Shown here: in pieces, positions 18,926 through 24,900 of the stretch | Layout of the letters: each line of letters starts with the position of its first letter | How positions within the stretch are numbered: position 1 is the stretch's first letter | Origin: Candidatus Diapherotrites archaeon CG10_big_fil_rev_8_21_14_0_10_31_34 | GTDB taxonomy: Archaea; Iainarchaeota; Iainarchaeia; Iainarchaeales; 1-14-0-10-31-34 | DNA: 25,926 nt | Direction of reading: 5' to 3' | Assembly (NCBI GenBank): GCA_002763225.1 | Contig: PFAI01000030.1 | Span: 1-25,926 of the forward strand | Position numbers: made by a program

Positions 18926-21900
18926 ATTAAAGCAAAAGTATTAGGTCAGGACACAGGAAATATTTCAACTCTAAGCAATCCAGAAGCAGTAGAAGAATTA
19001 CTAAAAGCAAAATGATGTTTCAGTTTTATTTTTCCAGCAGGAATTCAATTGATTTATCTATATCTTCGTCAGCCAGTAATTCAAAAAATCTTTGGATGTC
19101 AAAGTTTTTATCAAAAGAAGTCTCAGAAAGATTTTTTTCAAGCATTTCAATTCCTAAAGCAGAAACAGATTTCTTTGTTTTATGCAAGTCTCTTAATTCC
19201 TGAATTCTTCTTTTGAATTCAACAGAAGAAAAATCCTTGTTAACAGAAAAAATTGCTTTTCCCTGAAACTCGGATAAAACTTTATTTAAATCTACGTCAG
19301 ATTGAGTTAAACCTTTGGCTAAAGTTCCGGTTAATTTAATTCTAATTAAAGGAATTAAATCAGCTCTGTTTTGAGCTAAAAAAACATCAATTTTTGTTTC
19401 TAATCTTTCAAGAATTTGGGCAGGAGTTGCTTCAATAAAAGAAATTTTTTCATAAAAAAGGTTTCTCTGGTTTTTTAATGGAATAAAAAAAGTATTCATT
19501 GACTCAGAATCAATCAATACAATTCCTTTTTGTTTTTCTGATTCAAGTTTTTTCATTTGCGTTGTGATTGTAGAACCAGGCATTAATAATTTGCCTCCAT
19601 CAAAAGCTTTTTCTGCATGCCAATGCAAATGTCCATTAATAATTAAATCAAATCCTTTTGGCAGATTAGAAATTGAAATAGTTGCAGCCATTTCATCCTG
19701 GGTTGGAAGAAATTCCTTAATGGATTGATGCAATAACAAAAAGTTTTTTGCTAAAGGAATTGGATTTGGATTATATAGTTTAAGGACATCTAATGCTTTT
19801 TTTTCTGGAACGCCGCCCATGCCATGAACAGCAACTTTTTCATTGTCTTTTTCTGCAGTTAAATAGTTTGCATGAATGTAAAAAATAAATCCAGCACTTT
19901 CAAGCACTTCAAGAGGATTCTTAAAATCCCTTGAACGCAATTCATGAGTTCCGTGAATTGCAATAACCGGAATTCCCCTGAAAAATAGTTCTTTTCCTTC
20001 TTTTAAAATTCTTACTTCGCTTTTTTTTGCATTTTTTGTCAGCCTGAATAACTCAAATGAATCAAACCATGTTTCAATTAAAGGGATTTTTGAATCAAAA
20101 ATATCTCCAGGCAATAAAATCAGTTCAGCATTATTTTCTATTGCAAGAGCAAAAGCATTTAACGCATTATTTAATGCCTCTTCTTTTCTTTCAGTTTTAT
20201 TGGAAAAACCTAAATGAGTGTCAGAAATAATTGCTATCTTCATTTAATCAACTCTAAAATTTCTTTGAATTGCTGTTCAGGATAAAATGTTATTGGAGAG
20301 AAAACAACAAAACCTGTTTTGTCCTGCAATTCACTGATTTCTTTTAATGCTTTGGCTTCATTTCTTTCACTTAAAACCAAAGCAGAAAGAAAATTTCTTT
20401 CTTGTTCTATTGCAGAAAAAGGAATTGATTTTAATTCAGTAAAAGAATTAAACTGAGAGATTAATTCAATATTTGCTTTAATTTTAGAATTATTTTCCCG
20501 GATTATTGGAAAAATATTGCAGCCTCTTTTAAGCATTAAAAAAGCTGAAACTAATTCATCTTTTTTTCCATCCATGATTAAACCAACTTTTCCTTCTACT
20601 CCAACCGGAATGCCTTTTACCCCGGGAATTTTTTCTGAATAAAGAAAAACAGTGTTTTGGATTACATCAGCAAAAATTTCTTTTGAAGGACTTGAAAGAT
20701 TTACTTTTAATCCTTTAATTTCATCCATTATTTTTTGTCCTACTTCAACTGCAATATCCTGAGAAGAAAAATCGTGTTTTCCGTTTCTTGAAATACGCAA
20801 AGCAAAAGAATCTCCTTTTGAAAGAGTTTTTTTTGCAAAATCAACAAAGATTTCTTTTAAGTCCTGCATTGAATTAAAAGTAAAAGGAACAGCAAAAGAA
20901 AAAGAATGGATTCCAAAAACTTTTTGCATTAAAGGAATTGCTTTTATCTGATTATCTGTTTCACAGACAAGAATGCCTGAAAACTTTCCTGAAAGAGTTA
21001 AATTAATGTTTTTTGAGTTAAGTGTTTTCCTTAAATTTGAAACCAATTTTTTAATAAAAAATTGTCTGACAAAATGAGTTTTAAGATAGATTTCTGAAGC
21101 AGGGCGCAAAACTATAATTGATTTATCCATTAAATAAAATAAAAGAGAAAAAGTTAAAACACAATCTAATTATACATAATTTATTGTGTGTTTTACATCA
21201 AATAAAAGAAAAAAAGGTTTAGCTGTATTTTGACACACTAAAACCTAATGCGCCTATTCCACCCCACATTACTGCTAAGGCACCCCAATTTGCGGCATAA
21301 GGACTCCAAATCCAGGCTACACCAATTGCAAAAAGAATTAAACCAAAAACAATGCTGGCTTTTTTCACAAATTCGCTCATTAAATCCCTCCAAAAACTAA
21401 AATAATGATATTAATAACATTTTTTGATTAATAAACCTTTGTGTTTTAAGAGTTAAATTGTCTTTAGTTTATTTGTTTTTCAAATTCAATAAACAGTTTT
21501 TCGGTTAAATCATTTAATCCTGCTTTAAGTTCTTCTTCTAACACTTTTTTTTGAAGTGATTTGGTTGCAGGCTTGTCTGGGCCTAATGCATCACAGGTTT
21601 CTGGTCCGACAGAAAGATTATAAGTATCAAGTTTTTTTGCTAAATCAATTATTTCTTGTTTATCCATTCCAAGCAATGGCCTTATCACAGGAATTTTAAG
21701 TCCAAAAGAAATTGAAACTAAATTCTCTAAAGTCTGGGATGAAACCTGCCCTAAATTTTCTCCTGTAACAATTAAATCAAACTTGTGTTTTTCACAGATT
21801 TTTTCAGCTGTTTTCAGCATTAAACGCTTCATTAAAATAAAATAAAATTTTCTTTCAGTTTTATTCACAATCTGCTGTAATGCATCAGAAAAATCTATTG

Positions 21901-24900
21901 AAATAAATCTTGAATTCAGTTTTTCAGCTAATTTCTCTGATTTTTCAACTGACTGTTTCCCTGTTATTTTAACTGAAGAAAAATGCAGGCAGGTAATTTC
22001 TGTTTTATCTTTAATTAAAAATCCTGCTACAGGACTGTCAATTCCTCCGCTTAACAAAAGCAATGACTTCATACAAAAATATGGATTAGATTAAATTAAA
22101 AAATAAACCAAATAAAGACAAATAAAATCAAAAAAAAGCCTAAAAAAAGATTTAATTAAAAAAAAACCAAACAAAAACAACCAATAAAAAAAACAAATTT
22201 AATTAAAAAACCAAACAAAAACAACCAATAAAAAAACAGGTTTAATTAAAAAAACCAATTAATTAAACATATTATAATGAAAGAAATTTTTGATGTAATA
22301 ATAATTGGCGGAGGACCAGCAGGATGTTTTGCTGCATTAGAATGCGCTAAATCTAATTTAAAGACTCTTTTATTAGAAGAAAATTCGGTTATAGGGCAAC
22401 CAGTTCATTGTGGGGAATGCATTTCAGGAATTGCAGCCGGAAGGCTTGGATTAGAATTACCTGAACAAGTAATTTCAGCTAATGTAAAAGGCATTAAAAT
22501 AATTTTTCCTAACGGAAAAAACACTGTTTTAAAAGAAGAAGGATTTGTATTAGAAAAAGATAAATTCGAGCAATGGATTGGAAAAAAAGCAGTTAAAGCA
22601 GGAGCAAAAATAAAAACAGAGCATAAAGTTAAAGAAATAAAAAAAGAAGGAAATTTTTGGGAAATACAATGTTCTAATAAAAATTCTTTTACAGGAAAAA
22701 TTTTAATTGATGCATCAGGAGTTTATTCTTTTACATCAAAAAAACTTGAATTAAATTCAATGCCGAAAACAGTTATTGGAATCCAGTACAAAATGACAGA
22801 AATTGAAAGAAATGATTTCTTGGATTTCTATTTATGGCCTAAACTGGCGCCAAAAGGATATTTGTGGATGATTCCAAAAAAAAATGGGAAAGCAAACATT
22901 GGATTAGTTACAGAAGAAAAAACGCATGCAAAGAAATTTTTGGATGAATTCTTAAAACAAAAAAAATGGGAAAACAAAAAAATTGAGAAAAGCTTTGGCG
23001 GATTAATTCCAATTTCGGGCCCGCACAAAAAAACTTTTGATGATGGCTTAATGTTAATAGGGGATGCAGCAGGATTTACTTCTCCTTTATTTGAAGGCGG
23101 AACTTCTCTTGCATTAACTTCAGCAAAGTTTGCAGGAATGACCGCAAAAAAAGCAATTGAAACAAATGATTATTCAAAAAAAGTTTTGAAAGAATATGAA
23201 GAGTTATGGAAAAAAGAGTTTCCTGACTACAATAAACTGATTAAAGGAAAAAATATTTTTTATTCTTTTAGTGAAGAAGAACTGAATTTTTTTTCTGAAC
23301 TGCTTCCGGATGACTTGACTAAAATCAGTTTCTGGAAATTTTTGTCTTCTTCTTTAAAGCTTTTAATCAAAAAGCCTTTACTGGTTAAAAAAGGGGCTTT
23401 TAAGGCTGCAAAAGCTTTTTCTTTCAGCAAAGCAAAGCATTATGGGTGGTGAAAAAAATGTTTGTAAGAAAATTAAAGGAATGCAGTGAATTCACTGCAG
23501 GAGACCATTCAATTTTAAGGGAATTATTTAATCCATTAAAAGACAAACTTGAATTAAATTACAGTTTGGCTTATGCAAGAGTTCCAACAGGGAAAACCTG
23601 CACTAAACACAGGCTGAAAAGCAGTGAAGTGTATTATATTCTGCAAGGAAAAGGAATAATGTTTATTGATGACAAACAAAAAAAAATAGAAAAAAATGAC
23701 GCAATTTATATTCCGCCTAATGCAGTTCAACGGATTTCAAACACAGGAAAAAAAGAATTAATCATTTTATGCATGGTTGAGCCTGCATGGAAACCAGAAG
23801 ACGAAGAAGTGTTTGAAGAAAAAGATTAAATAATCGTATTTCTTTTCTTTTAGTGATAGCATGGGAAAAGTTTTAAACAGAAACAGGGTCAAAAACCTGA
23901 ATGTTTTCAGGCAAAAAATGCAGTGGGCAGTAAAAGACATGATTAAACACGAAAAAAACCCTACTTTAAAAACTGCTTATGAAAGAACTTTAACTAATTT
24001 AGAAACAGTTCCAATTAATTTTTATCCAAAAGATTCATTATCAAGAACTGTTTTTCAGATCGGAAAACATTTTTTTACATCAGAAGTTTTAGGGGAACAC
24101 AAGCAAAACATCAGAGTCATAAGAAACGGCAATTTGCTAAAAGTTATTCCAGAAGGCAGATTAATTGAAATTCCTGCAAACCATTTTTTTCTTGGAAACA
24201 CCCCTGCATGGGGGGGAATGAAAACTTTAATGCATGAAATCTGTCATGATCCGGCAAGAAATGTATTTGATTTTTCCAGAGAAATTCAGTTAAACCCAAG
24301 CCAAACAGAAGAATTGATTGCAGATTTAATGAGCGCAAAAATAGCAATTAAAATGGGTTTTCCAAGGGAAAAAGTTTTAAGTTTATATAATGGAAGAGAA
24401 TGGGTTTACGGAAGATTTCCTTATAGAAAATTTTTAGAGAAAGCCATTAAACAAAAAAAGTTCAGAGAAGAAATCTCCGGAAGAAAAGCAAGAGAACCAT
24501 TAAAAATAATGAAAGGCAAAAAAAGAAATCAAAAAATGCTTTATAAATAAAAGATTTTCATTAAACTTTTATAACATAAAAAAAAGCCGGGAGAGGGACC
24601 AAAAGGCAAAGTTTGAAGCCGAACCAAAAAAAACACAGTAGTGTATAAACAAAAGATTTAAATAAATGTAGTGTATAATATTTTTATGGTTTTTATAAGA
24701 AAAATTAAGGGTTATTTTGTTTTGGCGCATTCTGTCAGAAAAGGAAAAAAAACAGTGCAGGAAACAAAATATGTCGGGAAAGTTTTGCCTTCAAAAGAAA
24801 GACTGGGGCAGTTAAAAAAAGAGTTTTTGAAGGAACTCAAAGGAAGAAAATACAAATATTTTTCCGGAGAAGAAGTAGAAGAAATTGAAAAAAAGAAAAC

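Follow-up and report, generated by a model that had tools for sequence, protein, structure and literature searches.

A putative two-protein s4U8 synthetase in archaea, made of a PH1313-type tRNA-binding subunit and a stand-alone ThiI catalytic subunit

The window analysed here, a stretch of 25,926 nucleotides from a Candidatus Diapherotrites archaeon, carries on its minus strand two ORFs, found where the initial annotation had placed them, whose products of 296 and 202 amino acids probably constitute, to judge from their sequences, a heteromeric s4U8 synthetase. Such a two-protein s4U8 synthetase would be a variant of a known enzyme, and it was not found in the literature searched. The case for the partnership rests on co-occurrence; we infer the physical binding of the two proteins, the substrate, the sulfur donor and a 1:1 stoichiometry, with 2:2 as the alternative.

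The two genes had been described as neighbours. They do lie close together, but are not directly adjacent, as a small hydrophobic ORF is found between them. This ORF is 72-81% identical in three relatives of the genus, gave no Pfam match below E 0.2 and is probably a bystander. The mre11-like gene adjoins the dead gene at 24 out of 30 loci in the order, and the reductase gene is near the type B catalytic gene in several families. In the window these two older blocks (dead gene with mre11, short gene with reductase) have been brought together at the level of the genus, and within the order close linkage of the dead and short genes is found only in this genus. A frameshift or assembly break was rejected as the cause of the split, since each gene carries a PP-type domain of its own, the catalytic gene precedes the other, and in most genomes the two halves are not linked. 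A scan for sigma-70 promoters, a model ill-suited to archaea, returned 7 sites against 10.3 expected.

Coordinates and basis of the features in the window
Feature	Position	Strand	Basis
tRNA-binding, catalytically dead subunit, PH1313 type, 296 aa (predicted)	20240..21130	-	Pfam; 1VBK sequence match; AlphaFold2 and Foldseek
Layout of the 296 aa protein: NFLD, THUMP, linker GIPVGVEG, shrunken PP-type domain	20240..21130	-	
Degenerate PP-loop position, DGKKDE replacing SGGIDS	20555..20572	-	alignments
53 aa hydrophobic ORF, between the dead and catalytic genes	21219..21380	-	
Stand-alone ThiI catalytic (PP-loop) subunit, single-cysteine type B, 202 aa (predicted)	21464..22072	-	PF02568, Foldseek
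PP-loop SGGIDS, residues 8-13 of the 202 aa protein	22034..22051	-	invariant in 117 relatives
GQVSSQT ATP-phosphate-binding loop, residues 108-114 of the 202 aa protein	21731..21751	-	role by T. maritima ThiI (PMC4041423)
Cys160, equivalent of catalytic Cys344	21593..21595	-	alignment to 4KR6; 100% of 85 short-form rows
mre11-like gene, 4 nt overlap with the dead-subunit gene	19026..20243	-	context; order-wide synteny
Geranylgeranyl reductase family gene, divergent from the catalytic gene	22277..23452	+	context

Sequence and structure of the two proteins

In the 296 amino acid protein Pfam detected the ThiI_fer domain (residues 12-78), the THUMP domain (86-165) and, weakly and only in part, the ThiI domain (177-224, E 0.0028), this last match being under the cut-off. 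This, together with the DGKKDE sequence, bears out its initial description as a ferredoxin-like/THUMP protein whose PP-loop domain is truncated and lacks SGGxDS. Among PDB sequences it matches 1VBK (E 8.9e-18), and the same entry is the top Foldseek match of its AlphaFold2 model (pLDDT 95.3), with a TM score of 0.84 over 310 columns, in line with the truncated PH1313 having been named as the nearest structure. With NFLD, THUMP and a shortened PP-type domain devoid of the PP-loop, the protein is of the PH1313 type. The figure of about 50 homologues first given was far too low: at 50% identity, most of the 150 top representatives are proteins of about 270-320 amino acids without SGGxDS. The dead forms are not one clade in an N-terminal tree from which three intended rows were left out and whose bootstrap is not settled.

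The ThiI domain of the 202 amino acid protein covers residues 2-182 (PF02568, E 4.5e-51) and includes SGGIDS, GENLGQVSSQT and Cys160; neither a THUMP nor a C-terminal rhodanese domain was detected in it by Pfam. Its model has T. maritima ThiI (4KR6) as the top Foldseek match (TM 0.91, rmsd 1.6). It is thus the stand-alone PP-loop domain with catalytic motifs and cysteine, and without RNA-binding domains, that had been announced, and it alone of the two carries the canonical ThiI motifs SGGxDS and GExxGQVxSQT.

Conservation was read from an alignment of 162 dead, 85 short and 89 full-length rows. The dead forms keep K17 (100%), G73, G131, V143 and P148, the linker residues G173/P175 and the KRG motif (R202 in 85-100%), and have lost SGGxDS, GQVxSQT, DK and the Cys loop; the short forms keep these four and have lost KRG. 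The residues of NFLD and THUMP which bind the CCA end and the acceptor stem, mapped by motif, are conserved in the 296 amino acid family. Of the three motifs held to be invariant in the short form, SGGxDS (117 relatives) and the cysteine (100% of the 85 rows) stood, while QVSSQT is invariant in only one of two main types, the other (type A) having QVASQT and CXXC.

By its sequence the catalytic partner comes in three predicted kinds, a distinction which is new here: with CXXC and a further cysteine, with a single cysteine as in the window, and fused to rhodanese. The CXXC of the [4Fe-4S] TtuI class, present in type A, is not found in the window protein, which reads YFILM at this place. Rhodanese was weakly detected in the THUMP-less proteins of three genomes (G257, E 0.003; G260, E 0.007; G262, E 0.0002). 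The single-cysteine type B forms a separate clade (100/99) and has invariant residues of its own (Y77, F78, S111, G156, E158 and D161) in place of CXXC; types A and B may or may not share one origin (70/71). Cysteine desulfurases do not track the catalytic type, being present in 78 of 80 genomes.

Co-occurrence and linkage of the two halves

The two proteins are the sole ThiI-domain and THUMP matches in their genome, which is 81% complete. The canonical one-chain ThiI (NFLD, THUMP and PP-loop domain) was not found there, its domains being on two ORFs and none full-length. By hand count, 90 of 121 genomes of the order have a strong ThiI-domain match, 67 in frames of 124-305 amino acids and 23 in frames of 380-450, which reproduces the split in lengths noticed at first. 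In 80 genomes of the order (G001-G080, out of 120) both halves were found in 48, the short form only in one, itself 67% complete, the dead form only in none, full-length ThiI with neither half in 15 and nothing in 16; these counts, like those below, overstate the association, since related genomes are not independent.

The same picture is seen in a second phylum. Among 121 Thermoplasmatota, 88 have separate half-matches, both halves being directly seen in 85, and the others have full-length ThiI (14), the N-half only (1), a ThiI+NFACT-R protein (1) or none (17). The initial concern about a short form acting by itself in other lineages is not borne out in this phylum, where the dead form accompanies it. 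Both halves are lost jointly in whole families (f23, 5/5; f30, 4/4), and types A and B are both absent where full-length ThiI or ThiI+NFACT-R occurs. Against the pattern, unpaired halves do occur, all in draft assemblies: catalytic in G077 and G262, dead in G087, G216, G251 and G265. The full-length enzymes of the order group with bacterial-type ThiI, apart from the short-form clade (100/99), as expected if full-length enzymes displaced the pair.

Two further cases of linkage were found. In the Methanomassiliicoccales-like genome G252 the pair is in tandem with a gap of 4 nt, and in G217 it is divergent; against the partnership counts that no short gene was near the dead gene in 80 Thermoplasmatota dead loci inspected with up to 5 kb of DNA a side. 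A metagenome scan of type B loci outside Iainarchaeota gave no linked pair in 80 loci, and mostly bacterial full-length ThiI. The putative heteromer, first suggested mainly from adjacency and length classes, gains from near-perfect co-occurrence in two phyla, from exclusion with full-length ThiI, from these further cases of linkage and from the reciprocal conservation of residues, as well as from the published in-trans mechanism.

Proposed mechanism and alternative readings

ThiI acts in trans across its dimer, the RNA being on one subunit and catalysis being performed by the other (PMC4041423), so that the pair would equal a single half-site of that homodimer. THUMP and NFLD of the 296 amino acid subunit would hold the 3'-CCA and the acceptor stem of the tRNA, and its shrunken PP-type domain and linker would be the docking surface for the 202 amino acid subunit. 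This would bind ATP, adenylate O4 of U8 and transfer sulfur via Cys160, the sulfur most probably coming from one of the two cysteine desulfurases of the genome, which has SufS-like and IscS-like genes. U8 is present in 25 of its 26 tRNA calls. In ThiI, Gly168 of the linker bonds to Asp319' of the other subunit, and a lysine of the NFLD loop, K17 in the dead protein, reaches the active site of the partner (PMC4041423). The counterparts of Gly168 and Asp319' are G173 in the dead subunit and D137 in the short one, and D137 is kept in 71-100% of short forms and lost in dead forms. Against a tightly co-evolved interface stand the swaps of catalytic type, which such an interface would not predict: the same dead lineage pairs with type A or B, with 6 changes needed on its tree.

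It is unlikely that the pair, at least with type B, is a complex for another position, RNA or chemistry (e.g. s4U9, or a non-sulfur substitution at the adenylated uridine). The separate clade of type B and its own residues in place of CXXC would fit such a role, as would s4U9, which has no assigned enzyme, and Pyrococcus, which keeps PH1313 alongside other ThiI homologues. However, types A and B replace one another genome by genome and share the exclusion with full-length ThiI and ThiI+NFACT-R, Cys160 aligns with the catalytic Cys344, and single-cysteine T. maritima ThiI is active (PMC4041423).

Slightly less probable still is the absence of a stable complex, the short protein thiolating by itself as a homodimer and the dead one serving as a tRNA chaperone or as an adaptor for another enzyme, like Tan1/THUMPD1 for Kre33/NAT10, co-retained for pathway reasons. 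A short protein lacking any RNA-binding domain fits this badly, since the activity of ThiI falls below 0.1% on a blunt end and the enzyme needs the CCA end (PMC4041423); nor does it explain why the dead protein keeps K17 and the shell of the PP domain which forms the dimer interface, or why whole families lose both. What speaks for it is that the genes are usually unlinked, that the catalytic partners are exchanged, that 1VBK was solved as a homodimer and that the dead gene is so often beside mre11. The QueC (7-cyano-7-deazaguanine synthase) or other small-molecule PP-loop enzyme suggested for the short protein by NCBI names of relatives and a weak profile match (E 7e-8), with the long protein as a decaying ThiI remnant, is very improbable and already largely refuted, as the match spans only residues 2-62 with 36.8 bits against a cut-off of 150.3 (TIGR00364), the ThiI match extends over the full length of the domain, the TM score is 0.91 to ThiI and 0.56 to QueC, and the long protein is both intact and conserved in different phyla.

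For the heteromeric synthetase a wider formulation can be given, which is about as likely as not. PH1313-type proteins may serve archaea in general as a scaffold that docks the tRNA and accepts exchangeable THUMP-less catalytic subunits with three sulfur chemistries, partners having been repeatedly swapped between lineages. In Iainarchaeota and Thermoplasmatota, gut Methanomassiliicoccales and, as suggested by sequence type, marine group II among them, the s4U8 synthetase may most commonly be this heteromer rather than the textbook homodimer. Against the heteromer stands that P. furiosus PF1288, whose chain length the source does not give, is active alone and that Pyrococcus has several ThiI homologues, so that PH1313 may not replace a full enzyme in that genus. 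Among Thermococcales, loss of Tk0366 abolishes s4U8.

If true, the heteromer would give a function to PH1313, whose structure was solved in 2005 and which has had no known activity since, as well as to two large families of archaeal proteins whose present labels are "THUMP domain protein" and, in error, "QueC". It would revise the view that ThiI catalytic domains always carry an RNA-binding domain and be a clean natural case of a homodimer resolved into scaffold and catalyst. Sulfur insertion by ThiI with neither rhodanese nor CXXC has been named as unresolved (PMC9825150), and a 200 amino acid, single-cysteine catalytic subunit would be a small handle on it.

Comparison with known systems

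The window proteins have in sum the same three domains and motifs as ThiI/TtuI (TIGR00342; 4KR6 of T. maritima and the [4Fe-4S] class of M. maripaludis and P. furiosus). They differ in being encoded by two genes, with one PP domain dead and shortened and the active one without NFLD/THUMP, CXXC and rhodanese; on the TIGR00342 profile they span positions 6-208 and 174-366, and neither reaches the family cut-off. PH1313 of Pyrococcus horikoshii (1VBK) is the closest structural match of the dead subunit over its full length, and the two share the kept motifs, the PP-loop being missing in both. The available parts of the sources describe PH1313 as truncated or ThiI-like, without confirmed activity, and propose no partner; in G257 a closer relative (E 1.9e-56) is accompanied by a catalytic protein without THUMP.

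The fusion of ThiI with NFACT-R (DUF814) was ascribed to s4U synthesis by its mutual exclusion with canonical ThiI (PMC4075521). It likewise has a ThiI catalytic domain without THUMP, but its RNA-binding domain is of a different fold and fused in cis, whereas in the window the ancestral THUMP module is on a separate dead paralogue. A stand-alone ThiI-type PP domain is also found in PRK08349 (NF006222, "hypothetical protein", 198 positions), a family which we take to be from Thermococcales. On it the best type A short forms reach 237 bits and the window protein 141, the cut-off being 251.

An active subunit with a non-catalytic partner is known from Ncs6/Ncs2 (Ctu1/Ctu2), also a PP-loop thiolase. 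Tad2/Tad3 and Trm61/Trm6 are further active/inactive heteromers among tRNA enzymes, and in all three the partners are paralogues. Unlike the window pair, Ncs6/Ncs2 and similar heteromers are eukaryotic, act on other positions and have active subunits which are not stripped to the bare catalytic domain.

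The two ThiI genes of the window

ThiI is represented in this genome (81% complete) by two ORFs, which are its only ThiI and THUMP matches: the dead subunit, of the PH1313 type, and the THUMP-less catalytic subunit. On the TIGR00342 profile the 296-aa protein covers positions 6-208 and the 202-aa protein positions 174-366, so that both carry a PP-type domain; the split is a duplication with reciprocal loss rather than a clean cut. The predicted structure of the 296-aa protein (pLDDT 95.3) has its best match in PH1313 (TM 0.84), followed by bacterial ThiI (0.76), and as a compact alpha/beta domain remains past the linker, the dead domain is trimmed, not unfolded. 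The model of the 202-aa protein (pLDDT 93.6) was superposed on the catalytic domain of T. maritima ThiI at 1.6 A (TM 0.91). Many relatives of the short form bear the database name 7-cyano-7-deazaguanine synthase, which was rejected on profile scores and on the TM of 0.91 to ThiI against 0.56 to QueC.

Features of the window (PFAI01000030.1) and of related Thermoplasmatota loci
Feature	Locus	Position	Strand	Remarks
MCM helicase	window	166-3849	+	intein with LAGLIDADG endonuclease domains
mre11-like gene	window	19026-20243	-	4-nt overlap with 296-aa ORF
296-aa dead-subunit ORF	window	20240-21130	-	ThiI_fer and THUMP; start of ThiI domain below threshold
53-aa hydrophobic ORF	window	21219-21380	-	between 202-aa and 296-aa ORFs; no family match
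202-aa catalytic ORF	window	21464-22072	-	complete ThiI domain; no ThiI_fer or THUMP
Intergenic region	window	22085-22265		A-rich; imperfect direct repeats of ~45 bases (by eye); between divergent catalytic and reductase genes
Geranylgeranyl reductase family gene	window	22277-23452	+	divergent from catalytic gene
LarE-like PP-loop gene	L185	3899-4672		by eye and weak profile matches
LarE-like PP-loop gene	L374	5751-6569		by eye and weak profile matches
LarE-like PP-loop gene	L380	90-965		by eye and weak profile matches
ThiI+NFACT-R fusion	L380	965-1999	+	archaeal genome without either half

The initial annotation called the two genes neighbours, but the 53-aa ORF stands between them and their linkage is a join at the level of the genus. 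The gene mre11 adjoins the dead gene in 24 of 30 loci of the order (L034-L063), which may reflect synteny or a tie to the UV/DNA-damage response, and the catalytic gene of the window's single-cysteine type (type B, below) is often near a geranylgeranyl reductase gene (L272, L273, L275, L277, L281, L283, L284, L289, L290). The latter two are found head to head or tail to tail in several families, often with Rieske ferredoxin and prenyltransferase genes. Since the window's genus joins these two blocks, the adjacency in the window is weak evidence. Dead and short genes are 13-20 kb apart in family f10 and head to head in G217. In G252 they stand in tandem, the dead gene first, with 4 nt between them; this genome contains two sets and is perhaps a mixed bin. 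The 53-aa ORF is 72-81% identical within the genus (L035-L037, weakly L053), and in G001 a possible relative (E 0.14) lies upstream of the dead gene. In three Thermoplasmatota genomes a LarE-like gene lies beside ThiI genes, among them both linked pairs and the ThiI+NFACT-R fusion.

Co-occurrence of the two subunits

The proposed split of ThiI into a dead RNA-binding and a THUMP-less catalytic protein proved real and widespread, with pairs in both Iainarchaeales and Thermoplasmatota. For the order, a PF02568 search of 121 genomes was crossed with a search by dead-form profile, which covered 80 of the other 120 genomes. Both halves were found in 48 of these 80, the short form only in one (67% complete), the dead form only in none, full-length ThiI only in 15 and neither in 16; the genomes are kin and not independent, and Fisher values on these counts carry no weight. 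Families f23 (5/5) and f30 (4/4) are without either half, mostly at completeness above 90%. A 71-genome sample of the phylum, mostly the same genomes, yielded two further cases: a pair from another order (G248) and a dead-only draft (G087).

The 121 Thermoplasmatota genomes, three of them known beforehand to contain the dead form, gave separate half-matches in 88, a full-length match in 14, the N-half only in one, a weak match in one and none in 17. Both halves were directly seen in 85 of the 88 (83 and 2 more), the remaining three having the N-half and an unlisted second match. Full-length ThiI was the single match in 13 of its 14 genomes, the second match in G211 being a 156-aa fragment. The weak-match genome, G150, encodes ThiI+NFACT-R, a predicted alternative s4U synthetase (PMC4075521). 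Further unpaired drafts have the dead form only (G251, G265) or the catalytic form only (G262).

A scan with dead forms from outside Iainarchaeota gave 80 loci, almost all of them under Thermoplasmata, Methanomassiliicoccales or similar titles; the PP-loop was missing in 80/80, and a short gene was found in 0/80 of the flanks examined. One Methanomassiliicoccales-type dead subunit is under an Eggerthellaceae bacterium title (L093), probably through bin contamination. Dead forms, some still of 370-400 aa, are found also under Aenigmarchaeota, Hadarchaeum, Lokiarchaeota and Thermoprotei names, and short forms under Methanoregula and Methanosarcinales names. Full-length proteins (350-410 aa) without SGGxDS (P0258, P0292, P0297, P0319, P0324, L265 and others) are possible intermediates towards the 300-aa form.

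Catalytic types and trees

Type A short forms have CXXC+C, a [4Fe-4S] signature (PMC9825150); type B, that of the window, has YFxxxKR, QVSSQT and GxExCD, with one cysteine. By hand count, the 49 short-form genomes among G001-G080 comprise 17 of type A, 29 of type B, one atypical and two with partial genes without type, and none of the 49 showed A and B together. A third kind (G257, G260, G262) is THUMP-less, with a remnant N-terminus and a C-terminal rhodanese match of weak score; two of these three genomes also contain the dead protein nearest to PH1313.

In the catalytic-domain tree one clade (100/99) unites A, B and the archaeal full-length CXXC enzymes, and B is monophyletic (100/99). The order's full-length enzymes branch with bacterial-type ThiI, in two or more groups; this fits a presumptive direction of change, read from the gene tree, in which imported genes would have displaced the pair. 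On the tree of dead subunits the A/B state switches six times, an exchange of partners that is not easily squared with a tight interface. Dead forms are interleaved with active full-length forms, forcing at least five changes and implying repeated inactivation or re-fusion.

Division of residues and proposed mechanism

An alignment of 89 full-length, 162 dead, 39 type A and 46 type B rows shows which residues each form retains. Dead forms keep E13, K17, R22, F109, S123, G131, V143, L145, P148, the linker GLPxG and KRG, and have lost SGGxDS, GExxGQVxSQT, the DK after RPL and the entire cysteine loop. Short forms keep all four of these and have lost KRG.

The pair is most likely a heteromeric s4U8 synthetase. 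The scaffold would bind the CCA end and acceptor stem of the tRNA, and the catalytic subunit would dock onto its trimmed PP domain and linker; U8 would be adenylated using ATP, and sulfur delivered via Cys160, donor and product both being presumptive. The window's genome has SufS-like and IscS-like genes, and SufBD was not found in it (81% complete). Desulfurases are near-universal in the order (78/80 genomes) and so do not discriminate. In four genomes (L271, L272, L273, L290; families f16 and f25) the type B gene has a SUF/SufS/SufU cluster no more than ~2 kb away. The tRNA scan of the window's genome gave long introns (100-250 nt) in several calls; two calls, Ala-tgc (230-nt intron) and Leu-taa (2878 nt), look spurious.

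The open literature searched does not describe any split or heteromeric ThiI; subscription papers may mention the multiple homologues. PH1313 is the weakest extension of the assignment, since 1VBK is a homodimer in the crystal and, of the several ThiI homologues in Pyrococcus, one is active alone. In the T. maritima enzyme one subunit holds the RNA with its NFLD and THUMP, and U8 enters the other subunit's catalytic domain; Lys17 of NFLD is directed at the active site of the partner, and Gly168 of the linker is bonded to the partner's Asp319 (PMC4041423). With residues mapped by motif and pairwise alignment, not coordinates, each side of these inter-subunit contacts is retained by the subunit that would require it.
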